From: a virus
Taxonomy: Duplodnaviria > Heunggongvirae > Uroviricota > Caudoviricetes > Demerecviridae
DNA: 64,000 bases
IMG/VR virus record: IMGVR_UViG_2974620381_000001
Location: 48,928-112,927 of that record
Direction: 5' to 3' (one strand)
Each line of letters begins with the position of its first letter. Position 1 is the first letter of the stretch. Below are positions 1,254 to 64,000 of this stretch, in pieces. The notes beneath the pieces are model-generated. The model did no database searches. It was given only the letters and a program-made list of their open reading frames with translations, and was not told where the DNA came from. The translations under genes were made by a program, and so were the position numbers.

Positions 1254-2144
1254 TTATACCAAATCTTTAAGCGATTCAGCAACTAAAATTTCAATACGTT
1301 TTGCTAACATATCAATTTCATCTTTGTTTAAATCACCTGGATCTTTGCCTTCAGGCAGGAGAAAGTTAGCAACTACAGGTGTTAAACGCGTTTTTGTACG
1401 AATTAGCTTAGCCAATGCTTGTGCAGCTTTATTACCAGAAGCATCATTATCTAGTAAGATAACAACAACTTTTACACCAGCAATAATATAAGGACTGAAC
1501 TTATCTGCAATGTTATCCGAAGTAAACTGATGTGTACCAAAGCAGCAAGAAGCATAGTCTATACCATTATCCTCTAGGTTCAGCATATCAAAGATACCTT
1601 CAACTAGAATAAGAACTGGAGTATTATATCGTACAGGGAAAATCGGTGGTGAAACTTGTTTTGGTTTTACTAAGTATTTAGGAGGGGCAGAACTGTTTAT
1701 AGAACGACCCAAAAATAGGATATTGCGTCCAACAGCATCTGTGATTGGGAATACAATTCTGCCTTCCCAGTCTGCTTGGTGTTGGAAAGCAAAATATTTC
1801 TTCAAGGTCTTAGAACTTATACCTCGGAAATCACCTTCGAAAAGGTAAGCAGATTCAGGAATTGCAAGATTCGTAGATCCATTCCTAATCTCTGAAATCT
1901 TTTTGCGTACTTGCGATAGCCTTGGGGACTGTCGGTACTGAGTCTCATTAAAATAATGGTAAATGCTCGGTATACCTTTACCGAAGCCACAACTCAAGCA
2001 GTGCATAATACCTGTTTCAGGATCAATACGCAAACTTGGGTGTTTATCGTCATGATCTGGATTGAGACAACAGATGAGGATGTCCCCACCTGTGTCTTTA
2101 TATTCAATGCCTTTCAGATCAAGTAGTTCTGTTATTCTACTCAT
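1254..2144 (-). CDS. DNA primase (DnaG-like: CHC2 zinc finger + TOPRIM)
   Basis: 296 aa; N-terminal CxxH...CLSCGFGKG zinc-binding motif; TOPRIM acidic motifs (VEGIFD, ILLDNDASG). Confidence 0.8.
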   Translation of the reverse strand: MSRITELLDLKGIEYKDTGGDILICCLNPDHDDKHPSLRIDPETGIMHCLSCGFGKGIPSIYHYFNETQYRQSPRLSQVRKKISEIRNGSTNLAIPESAYLFEGDFRGISSKTLKKYFAFQHQADWEGRIVFPITDAVGRNILFLGRSINSSAPPKYLVKPKQVSPPIFPVRYNTPVLILVEGIFDMLNLEDNGIDYASCCFGTHQFTSDNIADKFSPYIIAGVKVVVILLDNDASGNKAAQALAKLIRTKTRLTPVVANFLLPEGKDPGDLNKDEIDMLAKRIEILVAESLKDLV

Positions 2145-3613
2145 ATATCGCTGGCCTGTTCACCTGTTGAATTTTCAGTTTTGTCTTTCTTAGCACGTTT
2201 AGGTTGAGCCGGCTTATCCTTCTCAATAGGGATAACGAACTCAGCTTCCATTTGAGATATATCTTCCATTGCTAGGTTAGTTGTATTATCCATTCGCAGA
2301 GTTTCCCAGTTCATCTTAGGCATAAACTTCACGCTATCAGAAGAACGAGTCTTAACGAAGTCAAACATAATAGCACCTTGACCATTATCAGCTTTTGCAG
2401 CGTTAAGATTAGCAGCCATGTCAGCGGAATCAAGAATCCCCTTTGACATACGTGTTCTACCATCTTGATCGATCTGGTAAGGAGCTACACCAGCCACGTT
2501 ATGTTTCTGGCAGATAGATTTGAAAGACGAGCTAACAACCATCTGTTCTTTCCAGTCATACATATCAATGGTTTTAGAATCTGGAAGTCGGGTTTGGTTA
2601 ATATAGTCCAGTAAAGCTACTGTAACTTTATCACCATATCTAGCAACTAATTTATTTAATTCTACGTCAACTGTTGTAATGGACAGTTCAGGGTCATAAA
2701 CAATAATCATAGGAGTATGTAGCTCATACCCTTCTATTAGCTTACTTTCCATATCGTAGAAATCACTCATCTTAGCCATTGTGTACTGTTTAACAAAGTT
2801 ATCGAAAAGCTCTTCACCACCGTTAAACATCCTAGCTCTAGTTCTGGCTAATCTCAGCAGAGCTGCACCTTCTAGAGTATTATTACGCATTGCTAGTGCG
2901 GATACACCAGCTAACATGGCTAGATTACGTCTAAATACTTCATGTTCTTTCATCTCAATTGAGAAGTATGGAGCAATATCTCCATTCAAATATTGCTGAA
3001 CCTGTATGTTTGAACAGATAATGGATTTACCAGTACCACGCCAACCACCAAGCAGTAACGTTTCTGTGCGAGCTAAACCAATTTGAGCGTCGAACTCATT
3101 ACAAATACCAAGAGCGATTAAGTTCAGTTTGGTATCTTCTTCTCTCTGGAAAATACGCATGTTATCTGCGTTGAATACTTTTCCAGTATTCGTTACTTTC
3201 TCTTCTAATTTTAAGTGAAGGGAGGCAACTCGGTTGAGAATTTCTCCCTGATCCAGCATTGTTAAATCTTGAAGCACGTCTGTTTCTAGAAGCTTCAGGA
3301 ATAAATCCTGTGTATACTCGGCCTCTAGGACTTCAAGTGCCTGTTCCATGCTCACTTCTGGAATTTGAGTGTTAGCTAAGACGACTAGAGCTTGAGAAAG
3401 GCGGGCGTTCCTATTAGCTTCAAGCATAAGTGCGTCAATGGACGGCATTGTGTTATATTTTTTATAATAATTCTGGACGGCTTGGTAAATTGAGGAGAAA
3501 GCGTCATTAAAATGATCTTTATGCAGTTTTGAGAATGTTTCCAATGCTATTTGCTTCTGTTCGGAAGCTAGAAGCATCTTCAACACTACAGCTTGCACGT
3601 TAAACAAGGTCAT
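2141..3613 (-). CDS. replicative DNA helicase (DnaB-like)
   Basis: Walker A GGWRGTGKS; start moved to internal ATG (complement 3611-3613) preceded by AAGGAG; stop overlaps primase start (ATGA). Confidence 0.8.
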   Translation of the reverse strand: MTLFNVQAVVLKMLLASEQKQIALETFSKLHKDHFNDAFSSIYQAVQNYYKKYNTMPSIDALMLEANRNARLSQALVVLANTQIPEVSMEQALEVLEAEYTQDLFLKLLETDVLQDLTMLDQGEILNRVASLHLKLEEKVTNTGKVFNADNMRIFQREEDTKLNLIALGICNEFDAQIGLARTETLLLGGWRGTGKSIICSNIQVQQYLNGDIAPYFSIEMKEHEVFRRNLAMLAGVSALAMRNNTLEGAALLRLARTRARMFNGGEELFDNFVKQYTMAKMSDFYDMESKLIEGYELHTPMIIVYDPELSITTVDVELNKLVARYGDKVTVALLDYINQTRLPDSKTIDMYDWKEQMVVSSSFKSICQKHNVAGVAPYQIDQDGRTRMSKGILDSADMAANLNAAKADNGQGAIMFDFVKTRSSDSVKFMPKMNWETLRMDNTTNLAMEDISQMEAEFVIPIEKDKPAQPKRAKKDKTENSTGEQASDI

Positions 3614-3695
3614 TCTCCTTTGCACGCTTTCGTGCCTTCTAAATGCAAAAAGGGGAAGGAGCATAGCCCCCTCCCCTTAGGTTTAATTTACCAGA

Positions 3696-4463
3696 TTATT
3701 CAGCAGCCGCAGCTTTTGCATCCAGTTTAGCACGCTTAGCGGCACCATCATAGTCCTTAGCAACCAGACCACGACGAGACAGCATAGATTTAACACCGCG
3801 CTCAGATTTACCAGTTTTCTCAGCGATCTCAGCAACAGTCATGTTAACCAGATCCAGACCTTCTAACAGATCTTCACGAGTTTTAGCACTTGAGGTCTCC
3901 TGTACCGGCATAGCAGCGATACGACCTTCACGAAGCAGGCTCAGAGCTTTACCACGGATCTGCTTGATATTACGACCGAAGTGAGCAGCGATAGCTTCAA
4001 TAGTAGCACCAGCAACAACCTGATTAACAAAATCAGTTTCTTCATCCGGAGTGAAGGAACGAACAGCAGCAGCTTTTTCGGTTGGTTTAACAGAAGCGGT
4101 CATTTCCAGACTCAGGATCTTACCCTGTACCTGTTTAGCACCGAACTGACCACCAGCTACAGCAGCAGCGATTTCAGCATAGGTATACTGACCAGCATGA
4201 GCGTTTAGGAAATCAACCAGTTCAGCTTCCTGCTCAGGAGTCCACGGGGATTTCTGTACTTCGTTAGCTTTCTGTACTTCAAAACCTTCTTTACGCAGTT
4301 TAGAGCCAACAGAGCGAGCAGTAACATCTTTGCCAGTTTCAGCAGCCAGTTCAGCGGCGATAGCAGCTACTTGTTCTTGAGAGATTACAGAAACACCCAG
4401 AGCAGTGGCTTTTGCTTTCAGAGACTCGGTTACACCTTCTACGTTCCAGTTCAGTTTAGACAT
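3696..4463 (-). CDS. Ala-rich putative dsDNA-binding protein (possibly D5-like, ~29 kDa)
   Basis: 255 aa, three repeated K/R-rich helix-like motifs (SKLRKEGF, GKALSLLREG, KSMLSRRGL); size and position next to helicase/ligase fit T5 D5-type protein; function not provable from sequence. Confidence 0.45.
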   Translation of the reverse strand: MSKLNWNVEGVTESLKAKATALGVSVISQEQVAAIAAELAAETGKDVTARSVGSKLRKEGFEVQKANEVQKSPWTPEQEAELVDFLNAHAGQYTYAEIAAAVAGGQFGAKQVQGKILSLEMTASVKPTEKAAAVRSFTPDEETDFVNQVVAGATIEAIAAHFGRNIKQIRGKALSLLREGRIAAMPVQETSSAKTREDLLEGLDLVNMTVAEIAEKTGKSERGVKSMLSRRGLVAKDYDGAAKRAKLDAKAAAAE

Positions 4464-5238
4464 TATTATTTTTCTCCAATAGTTCTTTAATCGACAGGAT
4501 TTCTATCCCATTCGTTTCGGCTTTCTTATAAGATGAGGAAGAACGCTTCGATTCATCCTCACAGATTAGGTATTTGACGTCTTTGGTAACGGATTTCTTA
4601 ACCGTATATCCTAGACCTTCTAAATAGTTTGTTGCATCCGTTCGATTTGCAAAATCTTGCAAAGATCCGGTAATACATACCGCGATTCCATTTGGCTGGG
4701 CAACTAATTCATCTGTAATGATGACGTCAGCTTTAGTGCCCTTAATACCAGTTGAAAATTTCCACGGTAGTTCAATAACATCCTTGCCTTGTGGGGAATT
4801 TAGCCAGGCTTTGTAATTTTCTCCAGCCTTGCCGTCAGCCTTCACATTGTGAAAGCTAGTGCAATTTTGGGATAATTTCTTTGCTGCAACCTCTCCAATT
4901 AGAGGGATTCCTAAAGAACCGAGAACTGAACCAAAGTCAATGTCTCCGCGAACTTTAGTATTTAATTCGCTAATTAACTTAGCGGCAACCTTGCTACCCA
5001 CGGCTCTAACCAAATCTTCTTCGGTTAGGTAAAATAGTTCTGAAATCTTCGTCAGCTCCAGCTTCTCAATAGTTTTTGGGCCAAAGCCCTTTAACTTCAT
5101 TTTTGAACAGAAGTTCTCAATTAACTTACTTGATTGCGCTGGACAGTTGGACTTACTCCGACAGAATAATTGTCCGTTGACAAGATCTAGCTTAGAACCA
5201 CAAGAGGGACATTGTGTTGGAATTTCGATTTTCATCAA
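4456..5238 (-). CDS. NAD-dependent DNA ligase, subunit B (C4 zinc finger + HhH + BRCT-like C-terminal half)
   Basis: 260 aa; CPSCGSKL...C zinc finger, helix-hairpin-helix GFGPKTIEKL / LGIPLIG motifs; separate gene from adenylation half. Confidence 0.75.
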   Translation of the reverse strand: MMKIEIPTQCPSCGSKLDLVNGQLFCRSKSNCPAQSSKLIENFCSKMKLKGFGPKTIEKLELTKISELFYLTEEDLVRAVGSKVAAKLISELNTKVRGDIDFGSVLGSLGIPLIGEVAAKKLSQNCTSFHNVKADGKAGENYKAWLNSPQGKDVIELPWKFSTGIKGTKADVIITDELVAQPNGIAVCITGSLQDFANRTDATNYLEGLGYTVKKSVTKDVKYLICEDESKRSSSSYKKAETNGIEILSIKELLEKNNNV

Positions 5239-5265
5239 ATTTCTTCCTTATCAATTTATATAAAT

Positions 5266-5293
5266 ATTATAGCAAGTATTTAAGCATTTAGCA
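5266..5293 (-). promoter_or_regulatory. T5-type promoter (minus strand) for ligase subunit B, inside the gap between the two ligase genes
   Basis: Reverse complement reads TTGCTA-16-TATAAT. Confidence 0.55.
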
Positions 5294-5437
5294 ACTACAA
5301 TTTTAACTAACTTTGCTTACCCTCGCCATAACTTTCTATCCCTCAACTGAATGATAATAGTATATACCTAAGCGGCGAAAATGTCAATAACCACTTTATA
5401 ATTCCGATATGGTAGATGGGTAGCAAAGGGTTATGTA

Positions 5438-6409
5438 TTAATCGTATACTCGCTCTACTATACACGGGATTACACCACCAGCACGAATCACTCGAATCTG
5501 GCAACCGATCTCTAGATCAAGAGAGTTAATATAATCAACGTTATTAAGAGTCGCTTTAACAATTGTAGCATCATCAATAATTACCGGTTCGAAATAACCA
5601 ACTGGAGTTACTTTACCAGAAGCCCCTACCTGCCATTCAACTTTAGTAAGAGTTGTAATCTCGCCTTCTTCATCCTCTTTAATAGCGAATGCTCCACGAG
5701 GGAATTTATTAGTCCAGCCTTCCCGGAAGAATTTGTTGTTGTCATTAATACGAACAACTTTACCATCCGTCGGAATCCATTTAAAGAGGGAACGTACATT
5801 AACAACTGTTAAGAAGTTCTCATTCTCTAGCCAAAGCATATCTTTTAAATATGCTTCTGTAATACCTACAGATTCAGCAGAACACTGAATACCATATGCA
5901 ACGAAGATTAAACCACCTTCCCCGATACGCTGTACGAAATCATCACTATCTTTGAGGTTAATAGCACCAGAGGCAAAGTTACGTTTATTTTCTACTTCTT
6001 TTGTAATTAGAACTTCACCAGTGATTTGAGTAGGTACTTTTTGGGAAATCTTTTTAGGGATATTCAGCAATCTTACGTTGCTTGTGACATCATTCCCTAG
6101 AATACCATTACCACGAGTTAGTGCTTGAACAAATTCTCCATTAATATATAACAGAGAAATCGCACAACCATCTAACTTATCAGTTTCTACCTGACCTAAT
6201 GGGTTAAATGGAGGTTTATCCCCACGATTATAATAAACTTTCTGTAAAGAATACATACGATACAGATGTGGAATATCACCCCTAGGCCCGATCTCTTCTT
6301 CTAACGGAAATCTTTTAATCAGACGATCATATTCTTCGTCAGAGATTAAAGACATTCCCTGGTAATATGCTTCTTGGCAACGTTTAATAAAGTCTTTTAC
6401 ATTAGTCAT
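5438..6409 (-). CDS. NAD-dependent DNA ligase, subunit A (adenylation/OB half)
   Basis: 323 aa; KxDG adenylation motif (DKLDGCAIS), NAD-ligase N-terminal Ia-like region (CQEAYYQG). Confidence 0.75.
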   Translation of the reverse strand: MTNVKDFIKRCQEAYYQGMSLISDEEYDRLIKRFPLEEEIGPRGDIPHLYRMYSLQKVYYNRGDKPPFNPLGQVETDKLDGCAISLLYINGEFVQALTRGNGILGNDVTSNVRLLNIPKKISQKVPTQITGEVLITKEVENKRNFASGAINLKDSDDFVQRIGEGGLIFVAYGIQCSAESVGITEAYLKDMLWLENENFLTVVNVRSLFKWIPTDGKVVRINDNNKFFREGWTNKFPRGAFAIKEDEEGEITTLTKVEWQVGASGKVTPVGYFEPVIIDDATIVKATLNNVDYINSLDLEIGCQIRVIRAGGVIPCIVERVYD

Positions 6410-13350: not shown

Positions 13351-13857
13351 TTACACCTTAAATTGTTGTAAGGATTTACACATTTCAAGATCTGGGCTAA
13401 ATTCTAGCATATAGCTAACAGCTTTTAAATCTTGAAGATTTATCCCAGTCCTACCGTTGACTATAACTGTTGGATACTGATACATCATAGCACCCGCATC
13501 ATCAAGTACACACCAATGTTTGAGCTTATACTTTTCAACGAAACGAAGAACAGAATTACCCCTAGATAATCCACCTCCAGTAAAATCCGTTGTACCAAGA
13601 AAACGATCGATAAGACCTAATCTGGTCATAATCTGAACGTTCTCCATCTCATTTCTAACAGAGAACCAAGATGATACTCCAACAATCATTATCGGAGAAG
13701 GATGAATAAAGTCCTGAAAAGCTTTGAGAAGCGGTTTGAAAACCCAGTCACTTCCAAAGAAAATCTTTTCATCGTCAGGTGCATGGTGGTGGGAGATGCT
13801 CGAATTGAGCACCCCATCAATGTCTAGAAAAATAATCGGAGTATTACTTATTTCCAC
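13351..13857 (-). CDS. HAD-superfamily phosphatase
   Basis: 168 aa; HAD motif I IIFLDIDGVLN at N-terminus. Confidence 0.55.
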   Translation of the reverse strand: MEISNTPIIFLDIDGVLNSSISHHHAPDDEKIFFGSDWVFKPLLKAFQDFIHPSPIMIVGVSSWFSVRNEMENVQIMTRLGLIDRFLGTTDFTGGGLSRGNSVLRFVEKYKLKHWCVLDDAGAMMYQYPTVIVNGRTGINLQDLKAVSYMLEFSPDLEMCKSLQQFKV

Positions 13858-14026
13858 TTTTGTCCCTTTCTAAGAACGTATCATACTCAACCGTATCAAC
13901 ATATATGACACCATAGTCATCGGATTTATAGTCCATTTCCCACAGCTCACAGCGATAGCACCAACTACCGTCCGCCCATACAAATATATCATCGGGGTGT
14001 GTATATACAGATTTAACTATGGACAT
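13844..14026 (-). CDS. hypothetical protein
   Basis: 60-aa ORF. Confidence 0.35.
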   Translation of the reverse strand: MSIVKSVYTHPDDIFVWADGSWCYRCELWEMDYKSDDYGVIYVDTVEYDTFLERDKSGNK

Positions 14027-14841
14027 ATTTGTTTCCCCGGCATATAAGGCCTACCCTCTAGATGAGCTTCTACACGAGCAATAAAATCAGGGTCACTGAA
14101 GGCATCTACAGCCCCTTTACTCCAGTAAGGGATACCACGTTCTTCCAACTGGTACATCTCACTACGAGTCATGCCTTGATAGCCCGGTTCCGCTGCTAGG
14201 GCACTATCATAGTAGTTAACAACCATTAGCTTGGCAGCAGTACGGTTAAGAATAGGAAATAGTTCCCAGTAGAAGTTAATTACTTGGTTAGAGCAACCAA
14301 CCACAATGATCATATCTTGACTGGTAATACCATCAAAAACATTGTACATTTCTGCATACTCTGGAGCATGTTCCCCAAAGAAGATTACATTAGGTTTAAC
14401 CCATTTATAATCATCTGGGTCAATAGAATTGTACCCTACATCAATAACTCGTTTATTGCTACTATTGTAGCTGTCAGCTACAACAACCTCTTTTAAATAT
14501 CCGTGAATGTGCAGAATGTCACTATGTGAAACGCCAGCACGCTCAATAAGGTCATCAACGTTGGTAGTCAAATTTACTACCTGACCGGGGTATTGTTTAT
14601 ACCACTCACCAATACGAAGATGCGCAAGATTGGGTTCAACAGTTTTTAGCTCTTCACGTCGCTTGTTGTAAAACATATGGGTTTTATGATAAAAATTACC
14701 ACGAAAGGCATGAATATTACATACTTCTTCTAGATCATAATCATCCCACAATGCTTTACCACTAGCAGTATCAGTACGAAAGGCTCGTACACCACTTTCA
14801 ACGCTCAAACCCGCACCGCTAATAATAATTAATCTACGCAT
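14017..14841 (-). CDS. Sir2-family (sirtuin-like) NAD-dependent protein
   Basis: 274 aa; GAGLSVESGVRAFR (GAGIS-ESGIP-FR), TNVDDL (TQNID-L), HG and FFGE motifs of sirtuin catalytic core; no obvious Zn tetrad. Confidence 0.65.
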   Translation of the reverse strand: MRRLIIISGAGLSVESGVRAFRTDTASGKALWDDYDLEEVCNIHAFRGNFYHKTHMFYNKRREELKTVEPNLAHLRIGEWYKQYPGQVVNLTTNVDDLIERAGVSHSDILHIHGYLKEVVVADSYNSSNKRVIDVGYNSIDPDDYKWVKPNVIFFGEHAPEYAEMYNVFDGITSQDMIIVVGCSNQVINFYWELFPILNRTAAKLMVVNYYDSALAAEPGYQGMTRSEMYQLEERGIPYWSKGAVDAFSDPDFIARVEAHLEGRPYMPGKQICP

Positions 14842-15055
14842 TTTTCACCTGTTCTCTGAAGTTTTGCCCAATACTGTCTAATAACTCAGCTAATTCTTTA
14901 TTGCCTTTCTCCATTAAGGTATTAGCAATAACTTCTAGCATAGTAGCGCAGGATTCAACACCATTCTTATAGCCAGTTTCCCAATGCTGCATTAATGCGT
15001 TTTCCAAAGCGGAGTTTAAACCCTTATCTGGTAGCATCGGCTTCGAGAATACCAT
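14834..15055 (-). CDS. hypothetical protein
   Basis: 73-aa ORF. Confidence 0.4.
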   Translation of the reverse strand: MVFSKPMLPDKGLNSALENALMQHWETGYKNGVESCATMLEVIANTLMEKGNKELAELLDSIGQNFREQVKNA

Positions 15056-15248
15056 AAAGTTTCTCCTCTAATTCCATAACACGATTTTCATAAGAAGCAC
15101 GCAACTTTTCAATTGCCAGCGCACGCACCGTAACCTCATTAGAATTAATAGCTAATTGGGCCAGATCTTCTGTTTCCATACGTCCGTTGTAAATTAAGCG
15201 ATATTTAAGGTGTTTCACATTCTTAGTCATTATTAAACTCCACTGCAA
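15024..15248 (-). CDS. hypothetical protein
   Basis: 74-aa ORF. Confidence 0.4.
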   Translation of the reverse strand: MQWSLIMTKNVKHLKYRLIYNGRMETEDLAQLAINSNEVTVRALAIEKLRASYENRVMELEEKLYGILEADATR

Positions 15249-15603
15249 CGGTTTCTAGGTCTTCGTCAGAAAAACTAGAGTATATATCTTTAAGATACTG
15301 TTTAATACTCCAAGTAATATCTTCGTACCCATTGGGGCTACGTTGGTATACTTTTAACACTCTATTATACACAAATTCAAGATTACATTTTACTTCATCT
15401 CTGTCTTCATCAAACAAGCAATATGGGTTATAAGGCGATACATCTAGATTTGTTCCCACCCAATCGCCAATAATGGTAGGGTATGCAACACCCTCTATAT
15501 GCGAGTAATCACCTGTGGCAGCAAAGACAGCCTCAGCAATATCATCCACACCCAGATGGAAATCACCACATGTAGATTCAACTATATAGGGCTTTAATTC
15601 CAT
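15223..15603 (-). CDS. hypothetical protein
   Basis: 126-aa ORF; T5-type promoter on minus strand at ~15615-15660. Confidence 0.45.
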   Translation of the reverse strand: MELKPYIVESTCGDFHLGVDDIAEAVFAATGDYSHIEGVAYPTIIGDWVGTNLDVSPYNPYCLFDEDRDEVKCNLEFVYNRVLKVYQRSPNGYEDITWSIKQYLKDIYSSFSDEDLETVAVEFNND

Positions 15604-21483: not shown

Positions 21484-22629
21484 ATGACTACTTTACTAAA
21501 CCTGAATTGGGATCATACTAACGCTGACCTTTTCCTGGGAGATTCTCTAGGTATCGCAGATTATGTACGTGTAGCACATCCAGAACTAGAACGTCTGGCA
21601 CTTCTGCAACGCTCTCAATTTTGGACTGAAACTGAAATCAGTCTGGAAGCAGATAAGAAACAATGGCCTAATCTCCCGCGTGAAATTCAGGAAATTACAC
21701 TCCTGAACTTAGCATGGCAGACTCAAACTGATTCCTTTATCAGTCGTGCCCCTGAAGCAGCTATTATGCCGCTTGTAAGTCGTCCAGAATTGGAAGGTAT
21801 GCTCAAACAGTGGAGCTATTTTGAAGACCTGCATAGTCGTGCTTATAGCAATATTATTCGTAATGTTCTGACTGATCCAGCAGAATTTATTGATTCTGTA
21901 ACCAAAAACCAAGAAGCATTCGCACGAATCGCTGATTCTGTTGAACTATTCGATGAACTGTACCAGTTAGGTCAGTATTTCATCGCAGTACGCGATCATC
22001 GTGGCGACAATACATATCCAGAAACTGAGTTCCCTGAAGTTAAACGTGAAACTCAGGCTAAACTATTAGACGCTTACTTTGCTATCTATGGTCTGGAAGC
22101 AATGCAGTTTTACGCATCCTTTGCATGTACCTTTGCATTAGCAGAGAACGATATTCTGCAAGGTATTGCTAAAAATCTGCAATTAATCGCTAAAGATGAA
22201 GCTCTGCACACTCAGATGTCTAAAGCAATCATCCAGATTATGTTCCAGCAGTTTGACAAAGATCTGGTAGATGAAGCAGTGGCTAAAGCACCAGCACAGC
22301 TCCTGAAAACTCTGAAAACTGAAATTGAATGGGGTCATTTCATTTTCAAAGGTCGTAGTCTGATTGGCTTGAATGCAGAACTTCTAGAAGAATATCTGTA
22401 CTTTGTGGGGCGTAATGCATTTATGCACATCGGTGTAGAATGGCCTAGTCACTTACCAGTAATCACCAAAAACCCTATTCCATGGATCATGAACTGGTTG
22501 GATACTACTTCTCTACAGCCTGCTCCGCAAGAAATCCAGATTGGTGCAGCTTACCGTGTAGGTCAGGTAACTGAGACCTCTGCTGATACTCTGAAAGATC
22601 TAGGTAATGAATTTGGAGATTTCTTATGA
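21484..22629 (+). CDS. nrdB: ribonucleoside-diphosphate reductase beta subunit
   Basis: 381 aa; ferritin-like di-iron/tyrosyl radical fold (E..H motifs, FACTFALAE). Confidence 0.9.
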   Translation: MTTLLNLNWDHTNADLFLGDSLGIADYVRVAHPELERLALLQRSQFWTETEISLEADKKQWPNLPREIQEITLLNLAWQTQTDSFISRAPEAAIMPLVSRPELEGMLKQWSYFEDLHSRAYSNIIRNVLTDPAEFIDSVTKNQEAFARIADSVELFDELYQLGQYFIAVRDHRGDNTYPETEFPEVKRETQAKLLDAYFAIYGLEAMQFYASFACTFALAENDILQGIAKNLQLIAKDEALHTQMSKAIIQIMFQQFDKDLVDEAVAKAPAQLLKTLKTEIEWGHFIFKGRSLIGLNAELLEEYLYFVGRNAFMHIGVEWPSHLPVITKNPIPWIMNWLDTTSLQPAPQEIQIGAAYRVGQVTETSADTLKDLGNEFGDFL

Positions 22630-23159
22630 TTACAGCAATGTATGCAGTTGGGCCGAATGGGGAGTTCGGCCTCCGAGGTAAACTTCCCTGGGGCTCCTTC
22701 AAAGAAGAACTAGATGCTTTCTATTCTCAACTGGACGTGTTGAATCCAGATAACATCATCATTGGTGCGGGTACTTATTTAGCTCTTCCATACGCCGTTA
22801 GAGAACGTATGATTGGAGCTTCTGACCTATTTATTCGTGCTGATCGTCCACTGCCAGACGATATTACACATGATATTTACACTCCCATATCAATGATAGG
22901 TGATACATTACCTACTTTTCTAAAAGATCAGCAAACAGTAGTTCTAGGTGGAGCTAATCTTCTTCTAGAAATGTACCAACATGGGCATATTGAAAGTGCT
23001 TTTGTATCCACAATCTTTAGTGATCAAAAACTAGAGGCAGATGTACATCTGGATAATACGATTCTAGATTACAACTATGAATCTACTCGCTTAGTTTATG
23101 CAACCGGCGCAAACAGTGATAACAGCCTGAGATTTGTACAGGAATTGGTTACTTATTAA
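22626..23159 (+). CDS. frd: dihydrofolate reductase
   Basis: 177 aa; MITAMYAVGPNGEFG...LPW N-terminal DHFR signature; overlaps nrdB stop (ATGA). Confidence 0.8.
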   Translation: MITAMYAVGPNGEFGLRGKLPWGSFKEELDAFYSQLDVLNPDNIIIGAGTYLALPYAVRERMIGASDLFIRADRPLPDDITHDIYTPISMIGDTLPTFLKDQQTVVLGGANLLLEMYQHGHIESAFVSTIFSDQKLEADVHLDNTILDYNYESTRLVYATGANSDNSLRFVQELVTY

Positions 23160-58799: not shown

Positions 58800-58984
58800 T
58801 GGAAACTCTTTTTCTTTTAATGCTCGTAGGTTCGTTAGTAGTTATATTAGCACTTCTACTAATCTGCAATATTCTTAATAATAAGAATTTAGAGTTAAAG
58901 TGTGAGAACCAAATCCTTAATCGTGAACTTAAACAATATAACCTAGCAGCGCACAAGCTACTAGACAAATTGGAGAATAAGTAA
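58799..58984 (+). CDS. small membrane protein
   Basis: 61 aa, N-terminal TM + coiled coil. Confidence 0.35.
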   Translation: METLFLLMLVGSLVVILALLLICNILNNKNLELKCENQILNRELKQYNLAAHKLLDKLENK

Positions 58985-59589
58985 TGACTTTATATGCACA
59001 ACAACCTGTTCAAGTAGTACCAGACCATGAGTTAAATACATGGGATTATGATTTTAAAGACTTAACTGCCACTGTACAGTTCAAATCTATGAAATTAACC
59101 TTTGCACACACTGATATTAAAGCCTGTAAAGATCTTGAGCATAAATTAAAAGAAGCTCGTAAGATTTTTGGAAAAGCCCGTATCCCCGCTGATAATCTAA
59201 TTAATACATTAATCGATGCTGGTTATAAACTCGTGAAGACTGAGGTGAACCGTCCTAGTACTCCTGTGACTGTTGGAGGTTCCTGGACCAAAAGTGGTAT
59301 CGCATTTAATCCTAAAATAACGTCGGAAATGCACAATGTTCCATGTGGTGGCACTATAGAAAATAGTTCCACATATCGAGTTGGTGAAGATTATGGGCCT
59401 TCTGTACAGCTGAAACATACCCAAGAAGCTTTTGAATCTGATATGAAAAGCGTAGCGCCTGCGGATGCTGAAGGTTTTAAAAGTCCCATCTATGTTACTC
59501 ACTTTAATAATCTTAGACCTGGGAGTATAAATGATGCTATTCTTGAAGCGTTGGGAGCTGCTCTTAATGAAGATAAAAGAGGTAATTAA
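58984..59589 (+). CDS. hypothetical protein
   Basis: 201-aa ORF. Confidence 0.5.
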   Translation: MTLYAQQPVQVVPDHELNTWDYDFKDLTATVQFKSMKLTFAHTDIKACKDLEHKLKEARKIFGKARIPADNLINTLIDAGYKLVKTEVNRPSTPVTVGGSWTKSGIAFNPKITSEMHNVPCGGTIENSSTYRVGEDYGPSVQLKHTQEAFESDMKSVAPADAEGFKSPIYVTHFNNLRPGSINDAILEALGAALNEDKRGN

Positions 59590-59936
59590 TGATACTTGGT
59601 AAAACAAAAATAACTTCTGCTGGTGACGATTTAATTACTCTTAGTCTTTACTATAAAGATGAAAATGTAGAAATAGAAACACTAGAGTATATTCTAATAA
59701 CTACTAATAAGCCCAAAATAGGAGAGTTATTTGATATAATATCTAGAGTCTCTGCTAGGGAAGATGTTCCAAGTATAACACCAAAGAATATAGCTCACTT
59801 AGCACAACAACTAGGAATCCTGTGGTATAAAGTAGATCTTCCAGCTAAAGAAAGAACCAAAGGAACCTTTGCAGAGGTTGCAAGAAAACCTAAGACAGAA
59901 AATAAAGAAACAGGGGAGCAAGCGTCTGATATATGA
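59589..59936 (+). CDS. hypothetical protein carrying helicase-like C-terminal tail ...ETGEQASDI
   Basis: 115 aa; last 8 residues identical to C-terminus of the DnaB-like helicase (2141-3613). Confidence 0.5.
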   Translation: MILGKTKITSAGDDLITLSLYYKDENVEIETLEYILITTNKPKIGELFDIISRVSAREDVPSITPKNIAHLAQQLGILWYKVDLPAKERTKGTFAEVARKPKTENKETGEQASDI

Positions 59937-60646
59937 TTAAAGAAGCCGAAAAATTAAAACGTCTCATTCAGTTAGCGCGTGGTGCTACACAAAAGAGCCT
60001 TTCTCAGCTAACTGATGAAGAAAAATATGCAGTAATGTTTTTAGGAGATCATTATCCTGCTAAGTGGGATAAAGGTAAGATCAAATATGATCGTGATGCA
60101 AAACGAGTAGTTTGGTCAGGCTCATATGTGGAGGTGAATAAAGCGTTGAAAGCTTTAGATCCTGAAGCAAAGGGTTTCTCTTCTAATGCTATTCATATTC
60201 TAATCGATGAAGATCTCCCAAGATTTAAGGAAGCATCATTTAAAGAAGCATTAGCTAGCGAAGATCTTATCCCTTTCAAACATGGCAAATATGCCCACCT
60301 TCCTCCACTAGAAAAAGAGAAACCAACTCTAGTTAAAGATGAAGTTTATCGTGGGATTGGCACGATGTTAGCGAGTTTGACTGTAGCTCTCCATAAAGAT
60401 CTAGAGTTAACGCCCTTAGAAAATGCTGTGCATTTCATGTGTCATAAATACGAAGATACATTTAAAGAGCTATGTAAGTCGCTAGGAATGCCAAGTTACA
60501 CGATATTAAACTACGCTCCTGAGTATACTAGAGCAGCTCGCGGAACTATGGATTACGATGATACAGGATCCACTGCTTCCTATTTAGCAACTTATATCTA
60601 CTTCGCATCCTTAGGTATCAAACTCAAATCCAAGAAGGAGGAATAA
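59933..60646 (+). CDS. hypothetical protein
   Basis: 237-aa ORF; last gene before the 1.7-kb repeat region. Confidence 0.5.
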   Translation: MIKEAEKLKRLIQLARGATQKSLSQLTDEEKYAVMFLGDHYPAKWDKGKIKYDRDAKRVVWSGSYVEVNKALKALDPEAKGFSSNAIHILIDEDLPRFKEASFKEALASEDLIPFKHGKYAHLPPLEKEKPTLVKDEVYRGIGTMLASLTVALHKDLELTPLENAVHFMCHKYEDTFKELCKSLGMPSYTILNYAPEYTRAARGTMDYDDTGSTASYLATYIYFASLGIKLKSKKEE

Positions 60647-60696
60647 AAGTTAACAAAAAGTTCTTGCATTCTCATACCCAAACATGTTATAATAAT

Positions 60697-60866
60697 CTCA
60701 TAGATTAACAACTACTCTAGTTGATTAACTCTAGGGGCGATGATTATTACACGAATGTCTCGTATAGCTTGCGGCCTAGCAACAGCGGTATGACGGCATG
60801 AGTACTCACGTAATTAATCACGCGCCCCCAGGAGAGACTCTCATGAAATTGGGGGTCTCTTTTTCT
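60697..60866 (+). ncRNA. candidate small RNA (promoter-to-terminator unit, ~170 nt, no ORF)
   Basis: Promoter TTGCAT-18-TATAAT (60664-60693); downstream GC hairpin (CCCCCAGGAGAGAC...GGGGGTCTCT) plus TTTTTCTTTAT at 60815-60866. Confidence 0.4.
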
Positions 60867-61020
60867 TTATATTATTTAAATATTTTTAATGGCAATATCT
60901 GTGTTCAAGATGATACACCTGTTGCCGTTCATCTGCTAGGATGGCACAACACTTTCTTCTAGACTCCTAAGTTTCTAGGAATAGTTGAGCACAAATTCTA
61001 GAGATCACACTAAAATATTC

Positions 61021-61757
61021 ATCGGATTTGCACATATTCTAGGGCAGTTTTCTTCTCATATTATATTCTTTAGGCCGGTTTTCCTATATAGGGCGGTTTT
61101 AGGGAGGGCGGTTATTTCTAGAAGACATTTTTCGAAAACACATTTCCAGAAATTACTGTCGGATTTGCACACTGATATTCTAGAAATTTATGGTCGGATT
61201 TGCACAAACGCCTAAGTTTTTAGGAACTCTTACTCTCCTGAAAATAGCAGCATTATTTCGGGCCGAAGGCCCATGATTGCCTGAGTTTTTAGAGCCACAG
61301 AAATTTTCACTTGTCAAGCTATTTTGCCCCATTTTGCTAATAAAATTTTACTTTATCTGCACCTATCCCAAATCTTCCCAAATTATCTCAACTCTTCCCC
61401 AAAATCCCCGCAAATCAGGTGCTCCGCACCAAACATGCGCCCCATCCTTCTAGCCCCCAAATTTCTCTCGCTCTCTCATCTTCTCCTCAAACCCACACAA
61501 TCACACACCCTCCAATCGAAGTCACAAAAATCTTGTCGGATTCGCACAAATAAACTCATGTCGGATCTGCTCATACTCTAGCTAATTCCACAGGATTGAT
61601 GCGCAGCATCGGATTGCTGGAGTTTTTAGGAAAATTCATTGTCGGATTTGCACACTATAAAAATTTTTCGGGTCGGATTTGCACACTACCAAAAATTGTC
61701 GGATTCGCACATACATGCCCGCACGTAACACCCGTGGAGCAATGTCGGATTTGCACA
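61021..61757. repeat. nine dispersed 14-bp iterons GTCGGATTTGCACA (two with 1-2 mismatches)
   Basis: Copies at 61021, 61158, 61193, 61535, 61560 (degenerate), 61641, 61672, 61698, 61744; all same orientation. Confidence 0.8.
61360..61530 (+). other. G-poor polypyrimidine (C/T/A) tract of ~170 nt
   Basis: Plus strand contains almost no G between 61360 and 61530 (ccc/ctc/tcc runs). Confidence 0.7.
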
Positions 61758-61789
61758 AAAGCGCAGGGCAATTGCCCTGCGCTAAATAC

Positions 61790-61990
61790 GAATGATAATA
61801 AGAATCATTCTCATTTAAAAAGCGGAATGAGAATGATAATAATTCGCATTTAGAAAGTGAAATGAGAATCAATCTCATTTAAGAAAGGGAATGAGAACTA
61901 TTCAAAAAGTGAAATGATTATCGGTTAGATAGTGGAATGTGAATGATAATAATTCGCATCTAAGAATGGAAGTGAGAAACACTGTTATTT
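61790..61990. repeat. array of GRAATGAGAA(T) repeats with internal palindromes
   Basis: At least six copies (cGGAATGAGAATg, tGAAATGAGAATc, gGGAATGAGAACt, tGAAATGATTATc, tGGAATGTGAATg, GGAAGTGAGAAAc); perfect palindrome AAATGAGAAT-c-ATTCTCATTT at 62298-62318. Confidence 0.7.
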
Positions 61991-61993
61991 AAG

Positions 61994-62086
61994 TTATCCA
62001 CAGACTTATCAACAGCACGATTTGATTTGACAGAATCCTAGCCATTTTGAAGCGTTATTAACAGACTTATCCACAGCTTATCCTAC
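61994..62086 (+). promoter_or_regulatory. DnaA-box cluster (2 perfect TTATCCACA + 3 one-mismatch variants) embedded in 18-bp direct repeat ACAGACTTATC[CA]ACAGC
   Basis: TTATCCACA at 61994-62002 and 62067-62075; TTATCAACA 62007-62015; TTATTAACA ~62055; TTATCCTAC 62078-62086. Confidence 0.65.
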
Positions 62087-62359
62087 TGTATAAATATACA
62101 GTATTCCTATGCAGTGAATAATTCTAATATACCGCTAAAACGTCCTGAATCGCATTCTAACGCGTTTAATTTTGGTGGGGATACTAAAACAAGGGCAAAA
62201 TTGGAGGAGGCTTAAAAATTAGTTAGCCCGCTAACGATCACACAAGGCGACACGTAACACCCTAATCATTAGCAGGCTAACCATCGCGAGCGCGGTCAAA
62301 TGAGAATCATTCTCATTTGAGAATTGGGGGCACTCCCTGGTAGTTGCGCCCCGTGATTA

Positions 62360-62554
62360 TTAGTCTGGTAGTCGATGCGTGATTTTTTCCTCCTCCCCGT
62401 AGGAATCCACCAAATGCTGATAATAACCATCGTGATCATAAATCACTTTATCATACTCGCCACGCTCGACCGCTTGCCGGTTTTCCGGCGTATCGGGCAC
62501 ATAAAAAACGTCAACCATTGTGGTAGTTTTGGTTACAACAATTTTATTGCTCAT
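62360..62554 (-). CDS. hypothetical protein
   Basis: 64-aa ORF, first gene after the repeat region, opposite orientation to early genes. Confidence 0.4.
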   Translation of the reverse strand: MSNKIVVTKTTTMVDVFYVPDTPENRQAVERGEYDKVIYDHDGYYQHLVDSYGEEEKITHRLPD

Positions 62555-62570
62555 AATAACCCCCGTTATT

Positions 62571-62732
62571 AATTATTTGCGTAAATATACGCTTGCCAAT
62601 AGTCCAGCTAGAAAGCCCGCCGGTACACCAAATGAAGCCACACCGGGAACACTAGCACCATGAGCATATAAAGCCCAGCAAATTACATAAGGCAACAACG
62701 GAAACATGCCAGCTATTAAAAACTTTTTCATT
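62571..62732 (-). CDS. small membrane peptide
   Basis: 53-aa hydrophobic ORF with GGTGG SD. Confidence 0.3.
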
Positions 62733-63087
62733 GCGCCACCTTTCGAAACGCTGTTTCAATACTATCCGCAGTGGATTGAATATACGCGCCTTTCATTATC
62801 AGGCGCTCGGTGCATATCTTGCGGAAAATATTAATAAAATCATCTTCATTTTCTGCAATTAACGCTTCACCCATGACCTGAATATCACAAGATGCGAAAG
62901 TCAAAAATTGAAACGCTAGTTCACGGGCAACGACCGCATTGATTTTATAATGCGCGTTGCCTTCATAAATATTAATAACGCCCTTATAAGCTGGGGAAAG
63001 CTGGTTTAAATAGTTTGCTAATAATGCCGGACGGCAATTAGCAACAAAGCGATTGCCTTCATAAATTATCATTTGCATAGCTCCCAA
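62728..63087 (-). CDS. hypothetical protein
   Basis: 119-aa ORF; start ATG overlaps stop of an upstream 39-aa hydrophobic ORF (63077-63196). Confidence 0.45.
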   Translation of the reverse strand: MGAMQMIIYEGNRFVANCRPALLANYLNQLSPAYKGVINIYEGNAHYKINAVVARELAFQFLTFASCDIQVMGEALIAENEDDFINIFRKICTERLIMKGAYIQSTADSIETAFRKVAQ

Positions 63088-63726
63088 ATAGTTCCGCCGA
63101 TGATCATTAGCTGACTAATAATTATCAGAATAAAACCAATTGAAGGCAGGACGCCCCAAAAACGAAAAGCCGTTTTAATTTGCTGAATCATTTGACAGCC
63201 TCCCGATTAGATAGCCAGATAAAAGCATAAAAATCCCCAGTAAAAGGGGATCATTCTTAAATAGGGTGGCGGTAAAACCGCCCACCATTGCAAGGAGAAT
63301 AACAATAACGCTTTTCATAGTACCCCACGAAACGCAGCGTAAAAGGTGGCAAAATGTTTAACCGTTTCAGCGATCACGTTGCCACGCTTATCAAATTTCT
63401 TTTCTGTAACACGGAAGGCGTTTTTATTCCGCGCTACATAATTCGATTTTACAATCAGGACGCTCAAACGTGTTTACATCCACCAGCTTAAAGCCTTTCG
63501 AACGAGCAAGAGAAACGTTGCGGATCATTTTTATTCTCCTTTACTAGTCATGCAGCCCAGCAGATAAGAAAAAACGGCGATACCCGCGCCGACAATAACG
63601 GCGTGAACACCGAAAGCTATTGCAAACAACGATAAAATAGCGCCCAAGATACCCGCTAAAATAGCTCTAAAAATAACCATTTTCATCCTCCTAGTTAGCG
63701 GGGCGAAAATAACGCCCCGTTATTAA

Positions 63727-63958
63727 TTACATTAAAACAATTTTAGCGGCTTGTTTTTTGGTGCAATGTTCCGCCTTCAGGGTATCCAGCAAAAAGCCAG
63801 CCGTTTGCTGATCGATTTTATCGGCGTTATACAATTCTTGGATGGTATTATAAGTTTTAGCAATGCCGTATTCTTGCACCATTTCGTGAATAATAACGCG
63901 ATTAGATACCCAGCCTTGAGCGGTAAACAGATGACTAGCAGAAGAATAAGCAACCATT
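63727..63958 (-). CDS. hypothetical protein
   Basis: 77 aa from ATG after GGAGGC SD (track start further upstream). Confidence 0.4.
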
Positions 63959-64000
63959 TTAAGCCTCCAAATTTTTGGGAAAATTTTCAACCGCCCTCAA

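Follow-up and report, generated by a model that had tools for sequence, protein, structure and literature searches.

A conserved C-terminal tip on the replicative helicase of T5-like phages and its co-varying copy on an accessory early protein

Why should the replicative helicase of a phage and a small early protein that is otherwise unlike it end in the same peptide? The question is raised by two genes in the window, the stretch of 64,000 nucleotides (nt) of phage DNA that was analyzed here. The window matches phage NBSal005 (MN994504.1; Tequintavirus, Demerecviridae) at 100% identity, and subtracting 48,927 from a position in the MN994504.1 record gives the window position. Comparison of the two proteins with their relatives indicates that the shared tail is real, non-random and evolutionarily maintained: T5-type helicases carry a conserved tip, and an accessory early protein bears a copy that co-evolves with it. 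The elements concerned are given below, with lengths in amino acids (aa).

2141..3664, minus strand: replicative DNA helicase, T5 D6 type, DnaB family, 507 aa as the longest open reading frame (ORF) (Pfam, PHROG, profile and DNA identity)
2144..2218, minus strand: C-terminal extension of the helicase, modeled as disordered: residues 483-507, DKPAQPKRAKKDKTENSTGEQASDI, made up of a K/R-rich linker and the tip (AlphaFold2, entropy)
2144..2164, minus strand: helicase tip GEQASDI-COOH; family consensus G-E-x-[AST]-x-D-[IL]-COOH (right-anchored conservation)
59589..59936, plus strand: 115-aa accessory early protein, QIN93227.1, phrog_13456, a globular domain plus the mimic tail (PHROG)
59877..59933, plus strand: tail of the small protein, modeled as disordered: residues 97-115, VARKPKTENKETGEQASDI, with the tip GEQASDI at 59913-59933 (AlphaFold2)

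One peptide at two gene ends

Both proteins end in TGEQASDI. The helicase ORF runs out in ...KDKTENSTGEQASDI / ...KRAKKDKTENSTGEQASDI before its stop, positions 2141-2170 being STGEQASDI and the stop codon, and the 115-aa ORF in ...KPKTENKETGEQASDI / ...EVARKPKTENKETGEQASDI, again directly before the stop. As a peptide with a free carboxylate, the helicase C-terminus is KTENSTGEQASDI-COOH. BLASTP aligns the tails of the two proteins with 14 of 18 residues identical and finds no significant likeness between them beyond the tails. Over the shared last eight codons, 7 of 24 nt differ; the differences fall in five codons and are all synonymous, serine being encoded by AGC in one gene and by TCT in the other. 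Because all differences are synonymous and the serine codon families are switched, selection acts at the protein level, and the shared tail is peptide conservation, not DNA conservation.

On these points the original prediction stands. It had located the tails in these two genes, had described them as conserved at the protein level rather than as a DNA repeat, and had called the 115-aa protein otherwise unrelated to the helicase. Its wording of the shared tail as (K)TEN-x-(E)TGEQASDI was too long. The KTEN match is peculiar to NBSal005, the closest relatives of the small protein (class A, described below) having KTEK, KPEK or KSEK and most helicases KAEN, and the conserved shared unit is therefore (T)GEQASDI.

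The pair is far from what the other genes of the window would produce. The 206 ORFs of at least 40 aa form 21,115 pairs, and apart from this pair the longest C-terminal run in common is three residues. About 3.5e-6 pairs with a shared run of at least 8 residues are expected in the window, and shuffled tails never shared more than 5. In a six-frame translation of the window, TGEQ and KTEN occur nowhere else, and no further open frame matches the loose tail motif in the part of the genome covered, 113.5 of 121 kb. All IMG/VR occurrences of GEQASDI followed by a stop are in T5-like helicases (27) or in class-A small proteins (2). Chance is excluded by the pair statistics and the shuffles. A DNA repeat or a recent gene conversion is excluded as well, by the synonymous-only differences and by switches of Ser and Leu codon families in two lineages.

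The helicase tip in distant relatives

The larger bearer of the tail is a DnaB-family helicase by several matches. Pfam DnaB_C (PF03796), the RecA-like ATPase domain, is found at 35.7 bits (cut-off 27), the protein falls into PHROG 19 (DnaB-like helicase), and a profile of its homologues matches solved bacterial DnaB structures at an E of about 1e-12. The AlphaFold2 model, made with 32 homologues, has the two-domain layout of DnaB, in which helices (residues 5-158) are joined by a low-confidence linker (159-180) to an alpha/beta core (181-471). The predicted local distance difference test (pLDDT) is below 50 for residues 483-507, compared with 80-93 for the RecA-like core. At the opposite end, the first 13-17 residues of the longest ORF (3614-3664, minus strand) are disordered in the model, and many homologues, with annotated lengths of 478-492 aa, lack them; the true start may be Met18.

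There are 446 records of T5-like phages with helicase DNA of at least 90% identity. The protein is nearly invariant within Tequintavirus and Epseptimavirus, where the tail reads KDK[A/T]ENSTGEQASDI, so that conservation of the tail says little there and distant homologues are needed. In a right-anchored comparison of 31 helicase homologues (46-100% identity), the terminal residue (position 0) is Ile or Leu in 100%, position -1 is Asp in 97%, -3 is Ala, Ser or Thr in 94%, -5 is Glu in 90% and -6 is Gly in 58%, with -2 and -4 variable. The last conserved element before the tail is MEAEFVIPIE, and the K/R-rich linker varies in sequence and length (entropy 2.3-3.1 bits per position). The last 27 residues of the helicase contain 7 Lys or Arg and 6 Asp or Glu, and the terminal residue is Ile or Leu. 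Examples of the tip from other sources are as follows.

Klebsiella phages: helicase tip GESSRDL
Pantoea phage AAS21: helicase tip AESASDL
Serratia phage Slocum: helicase tip AENSRDI
Pectobacterium phage My1: helicase tip GEETRDL
Proteus phage 2: helicase tip KGAQDL
Uncultured lineages: helicase tips GEGAADI and GETAADL, and a tip that ends in ESRDI

A co-varying copy on an accessory early protein

The 115-aa protein matches PHROG 13456, a family without an assigned function, over its full length (residues 1-115, E=3.3e-25). In its AlphaFold2 model a confident fold is followed by residues 97-115 at a pLDDT below 50. Four classes of related small proteins can be distinguished. Class A, which includes the NBSal005 protein, ends in ...ETGEQASDI and is found in 27 phage records; ETGEQASDI is unchanged in six cluster representatives that span 76-100% identity. 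Class B has a body about 50% identical to class A and ends in ...SQQA[S/W/C]DI, and class C, with a body about 31% identical, ends in ...KPD[D/N]YI; together they account for 65 records. Class D (chee24; 13 records) ends in ...PLEEQASDI, and its body is only a remote homologue of the 115-aa family (HHalign probability 95.8%). The bodies of the corresponding Klebsiella and Serratia proteins are not detectably related to that family. In class D and in these Klebsiella and Serratia proteins the tail and the genomic position are kept all the same, and the profile of the small-protein tip is that of the helicases: Ile or Leu at 0, Asp at -1, mostly Ala or Ser at -3, Glu or Gln at -5, with -2 and -4 variable.

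The small protein of Salmonella phage S133 (locus 671-1012) combines parts of two classes as a mosaic. The body resembles class D (42% identity to chee24), the linker and tail, PEKKETGEHPSDI, resemble class A and end in ...ETGEHPSDI, and the 237-aa gene downstream is of class-A type (97.5% identity). A recombination breakpoint within the small gene is implied.

Across lineages, the tip of the small protein follows that of the helicase. In phages of E. coli and Salmonella, the small proteins end in GEQASDI, EEQASDI or SQQASDI and the helicase in GEQASDI. Klebsiella phage SEL21 has a syntenic small protein of 101 aa, in whose body no relation to the 115-aa family was detected; it ends in ...SLGESSADL, and the helicase in ...PTGESSRDL. 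In Klebsiella phage phiKp_27 the two ends are ...GEGESSRDL and ...PTGESSRDL, with 7 of 7 tip residues identical, and 7 of 27 nt of the tails differ, Ser being TCA versus AGT and Leu TTA versus CTA. In Serratia phage Slocum, a syntenic 130-aa protein ends in ...VPNDRDI and the helicase in ...AENSRDI. An identity matrix was computed over the last seven residues of the small-protein classes and the helicase tips, and the helicase tip of its own lineage is the best match for every class but class C. Small proteins of Tequintavirus and Epseptimavirus share 4-7 of 7 residues with their own helicase (1-4 with the others), those of Sugarlandvirus 6-7 (2-5 with the others) and that of Slocum 4 (1-2 with the others). 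The variable positions (-2 and -4) and the kept ones (0, -1, -3 and -5) coincide in small proteins and helicases. Pattern scans of IMG/VR for the other helicase tips returned helicases and chance matches only, and no further lineages.

Judged by these alignments, exact lineage-specific identity has come about or been maintained in at least two cases, GEQASDI and GESSRDL, on a saturated synonymous background and on different bodies. The simplest explanation for identity kept under such circumstances would be that both tails must fit one binding site, which differs slightly between lineages. Co-variation of this kind would be predicted if the two tails shared a binding site by mimicry or competition, and the evolutionary side of the suggestion that the small protein mimics the helicase tail or competes with it is borne out at the level of sequence, more strongly than had been anticipated. 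Conservation of the tail, likewise expected at the outset, is seen at the protein level in relatives of both proteins. Two of the earlier statements need amendment. The tails had been likened to classic acidic docking peptides; a disordered extension is present in both proteins, but it consists of a basic, K/R-rich linker and a mildly acidic tip that ends in D-[I/L]-COOH. The role proposed for the small protein keeps its mimic-like tail and loses any place in the core replisome: the gene is accessory and absent from T5 and many relatives, and its product is therefore better regarded as a modulator.

The small gene is carried by roughly 110 of more than 446 T5-like records, and OSYSP and BB1 lack it, as T5 does. 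The slot that it occupies, upstream of the last gene of the early operon, is a replacement hotspot, and several occupants have no helicase-like tip. T5 has the unrelated ORF018 there (2357-3241; 294 aa), VEc33 a 129-aa protein that ends in EDKAQEV (909-1298), Pantoea phage AAS21 a 179-aa protein that ends in REEDTL (21776-22315) and Pectobacterium phage My1 a 98-aa protein that ends in QVEEIY (14970-15266).

Since both genes are followed by an overlapping gene, the junctions themselves have to be considered. The neighbors are:

1254..2144, minus strand: DNA primase, 296 aa, whose ATG overlaps the helicase stop (ATGA) (Pfam)
59933..60646, plus strand: 237-aa protein, phrog_8993, last gene of the early operon, whose ATG overlaps the stop of the small gene (PHROG, E=2.6e-84)
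58984..59589, plus strand: 201-aa protein, homologue of T5 ORF019 (T5.019), a conserved upstream neighbor that anchors the synteny (82.6% identity; phrog_5271)

As the original prediction noted, the TGA stops of the helicase and the 115-aa ORF both overlap the next ATG as ATATGA, that of the primase and that of the 237-aa ORF, respectively. Between these two downstream genes there is no homology. The order helicase-primase is preserved in every lineage examined, and the overlap or abutment of stop and start is kept everywhere except in Vibrio phage 70E35-1, which has a gap of about 50 nt. Where the small gene is present, it lies directly upstream of the 237-aa-family gene, whose start it overlaps.

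The likeness of the tails could then be a by-product of this architecture, either a copied 3' end with its ATGA junction or a termination-reinitiation signal in the RNA or the nascent peptide. Both genes end in GATATATGA, which overlaps the next ATG, the codons for G-E (GGNGAR) resemble a Shine-Dalgarno sequence, and S133 demonstrates that a tail can be transferred by recombination within the small-gene family. GGNGAR, however, lies 14-15 nt from the ATG, too distant for a normal Shine-Dalgarno sequence, and no RNA sequence is conserved: the wobble positions are saturated with synonymous changes and the Ser and Leu codon families are switched. Five further ATGA junctions exist in the window, and the C-termini in front of them are unrelated. 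The codons for the conserved tip residues of the helicase differ between relatives, and Pantoea and Serratia phages have a TAATG junction in place of ATGA yet keep D-[IL], so the gene overlap does not impose the conservation of the tip. Nor would a signal read by near-identical host ribosomes be expected to give lineage-specific co-variation. An origin in gene architecture is largely refuted and must be considered very improbable. The narrower candidate of an RNA, Shine-Dalgarno or coupling-junction signal is unlikely given the spacing, the free wobble positions, the TAATG junctions and the five unrelated ATGA tails.

A putative docking motif and its surroundings

If the tails are kept as peptides, the reading that we regard as reasonably likely, from the sequences and by analogy with known replisomes, is that the helicase tail serves to dock a replisome partner and that the small protein carries a co-evolving mimic of it. 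The last 25 or so residues of the helicase would form a flexible tail of two parts, the K/R-rich linker and the conserved tip, and would act as a short linear docking motif for another protein. The small protein would present the same kind of tail on an unrelated globular domain, with its translation coupled to that of the 237-aa protein. Given that the two tips change together from lineage to lineage, the small protein probably mimics the helicase docking peptide and would most likely occupy the same putative pocket. Binding there would let it compete with the helicase, or be recruited through the pocket, possibly bringing its 237-aa neighbor along.

Docking by C-terminal tails has precedents in replisomes. 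In T7, the DNA polymerase is the docking site of two tails, that of the gp4 helicase-primase and that of the gp2.5 single-stranded DNA-binding protein (SSB), between which there is competition or a hand-over, as described in the Richardson-laboratory literature. There, as here, two different proteins of one phage carry similar flexible C-terminal peptides outside their folded domains, with a hydrophobic last residue, a free carboxylate and acidic residues nearby. Several features of a T7-type docking tail are thus found in the T5-like proteins, namely a disordered extension, a conserved tip (terminal hydrophobic plus acidic residues) on a variable linker and a second bearer. A strongly acidic tail with an aromatic end is not among them, since T7 tails are strongly acidic and end in Phe, whereas here E-x-A-x-D-[I/L] follows a basic linker. 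Furthermore, both T7 bearers are essential core proteins, while here the second bearer is dispensable, is encoded in a variable early region and has a tail that co-varies with the first.

The tip of bacterial SSB (...DDDIPF) is an interaction hub whose carboxylate and hydrophobic end insert into partner pockets. A disordered linker with a short conserved C-terminal tip is common to both systems, but the sequences are unrelated, the bearer here is a helicase, and the linker is basic rather than Gly/Pro/Gln-rich; the SSB-Ct pattern D-D-D-[IL]-P-F does not occur in the tails ...GEQASDI, ...GESSRDL and ...ENSRDI. In T4, the C-terminal regions of the gp41 helicase and of gp32 bind the gp59 loader. 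The resemblance lies in the arrangement, in which the C-terminus of a DnaB-like helicase binds a partner that the C-terminal region of a second protein also addresses, and not in sequence, and we know of no gp59-like loader identified in T5-like phages. In herpesviruses, the C-terminal tail of the UL30 polymerase docks on UL42, and tail-mimicking peptides block the docking. A free copy of a replisome docking tail can therefore work as a competitive inhibitor; that mimic is synthetic, while the one proposed here would be virus-encoded.

In bacteria, the C-terminal domain of the DnaG primase binds the N-terminal collar of DnaB. The T5-like genomes also have a DnaB-family helicase gene followed by a gene for a DnaG-type primase, but the Pfam matches of the 296-aa primase comprise a Zn ribbon, the DnaG core and Toprim, without a C-terminal helicase-binding domain. 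Coupling must therefore be built differently, and the helicase tail is a candidate for the link. Because the primase lacks the usual helicase-binding domain and is translated in coupling right after the helicase, it would be the first candidate partner; the DNA polymerase, as in T7, would be the second. Docking is favored on account of the T7 gp4/gp2.5 and SSB precedents, and because the tail sits on the replicative helicase, in a phage with a primase devoid of the DnaG C-terminal domain that binds the helicase.

Several observations weigh against docking and mimicry. The tip is mildly acidic after a basic linker, unlike the T7 or SSB tails, and it was not found in the Vibrio relatives of the helicase (34-40% identity). 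The co-variation rests on a sample of three lineages, in one of which, Serratia, the match is partial (4 of 7). The class C tails, ...KPDDYI and ...KPDNYI, fit the motif poorly. Finally, the small gene is missing from T5, OSYSP and BB1, and the protein in its place in VEc33, AAS21 and My1 is tail-less, so whatever it does is dispensable.

A more familiar class of C-terminal motif can be set aside. Class I PDZ ligands have Ser or Thr at -2; NBSal005 does end in S-D-I, but -2 is A/S/R/V/M in helicases and S/W/C/A/R in small proteins. The main rival to a replisome partner, considered unlikely, is that the tail is read outside the replisome, by a host defense sensor, a protease, a chaperone or a phage regulator, with the small protein as a decoy or buffer that takes up this factor and so protects the helicase, or as a co-regulated protein. 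Co-variation suits a decoy as well as a competitor, the small gene is accessory and patchy, and its product retains the tail on bodies that are exchanged between lineages. Its location fits too, for the BF23 genome paper (PMC10644984) assigns host-takeover and anti-immunity functions to the hypervariable early region beside the terminal repeat, in which the small gene lies, and most early genes of its class have no assigned function there. The tip is nonetheless kept across Escherichia, Klebsiella, Serratia, Pantoea, Proteus and Pectobacterium hosts, for which a phage-encoded partner is the simpler explanation. It is unlike ssrA-type ClpX degrons (...LAA-COOH, with non-polar last three residues), as Asp is nearly invariant at -1. 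Asp at this position is unfavorable for ClpX recognition. To our knowledge, no defense system or protease recognizes such a tip, although PADLOC was not searched. Were a decoy the right answer, it would point to a host factor that targets the helicase tail.

The tip might also dock in trans on the helicase itself, on a neighboring subunit or the N-terminal collar, which would make the small protein a cap, a loader or an inhibitor. Self-binding would explain why tail and mimic co-vary with the helicase lineage, and a terminal extension packed on the neighboring subunit could plausibly stabilize a ring helicase, a proposal made without a documented example. The AlphaFold2 model, which covers contacts within one monomer, shows residues 483-507 undocked at a pLDDT below 50. 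Docking of this kind is considered improbable.

A broader generalization is put forward tentatively: T5-like phages may repeatedly give fast-evolving accessory early proteins a copy of their own helicase's docking peptide that co-evolves with the helicase, a virus-encoded 'self-mimic' that serves as a decoy against a host factor attacking or sensing the helicase tail or as a switch displacing the helicase from its partner. As a switch, it could for example act at a set time to uncouple the helicase from the primase or polymerase, or it could carry the 237-aa protein to the fork. Phage replisomes with shared docking tails are already known. What appears to be new is the motif, together with its bearer and the self-mimicking accessory protein. 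A literature search of limited scope returned nothing on the tail of T5 D6, on the small gene or on how the T5 replisome holds together. The conserved helicase tip offers a concrete, mutable handle for finding the link between helicase and primase. If the mimicry is true, the copy on the small protein would be a natural competitor peptide and a tool for probing the interaction, and a phage protein would be imitating one of the phage's own proteins instead of a host protein.

The 237-aa protein that might be brought along has no Pfam or PDB match. Its family occurs in 292 phage records, always in the same position, with or without the small gene upstream, and its gene is always the last before the non-coding repeat field of the terminal repeat. 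In NBSal005 it ends in ...KSKKEE. The AAS21 and My1 lineages have no tail-bearing small protein, and their own last operon gene ends in D-I. In AAS21 this is gp180 (22315-23031), which ends in ...LKVKEDI and belongs to the 237-aa family by tblastn; in My1 it is My1_023 (13663-14970), which ends in ...NVANLDI and is assigned by position and a similar C-terminal stretch only. These D-I ends may be coincidence.

Downstream of the operon, window positions 61292-64000 correspond to positions 1-2709 of MN994504.1 at 100% identity. That record is labeled circular, yet it holds both copies of the terminal repeat. Since this part of the window is the start of the record, the right end of the window is pre-early (first-step-transfer) DNA. 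The following elements lie downstream of the operon.

60830..60863, plus strand: terminator-like hairpin after the last gene of the early operon (consensus scan only)
60650-62330: non-coding repeat field, which holds the units listed next
61013-61759: a unit of about 24 nt, nine copies, core GTCGGATTTGCACA
61793-62323: a 29-nt AT-rich unit, six copies
61993-62016 and 62054-62077: two DnaA-box-like units, GTTATCCACAGACTTATCAACAGC and GTTATTAACAGACTTATCCACAGC

The position of the repeat field matches the annotated field of repeats and palindromes near the injection-stop region of T5. Near the other end of the window, on the minus strand at 4456-6409, the ORF list and the annotation of relatives indicate that the NAD-dependent DNA ligase is apparently split into adjacent ORFs of 323 and 260 aa. 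The NBSal005 ligase thus apparently occupies two adjacent genes, as do ligA and ligB of T5.

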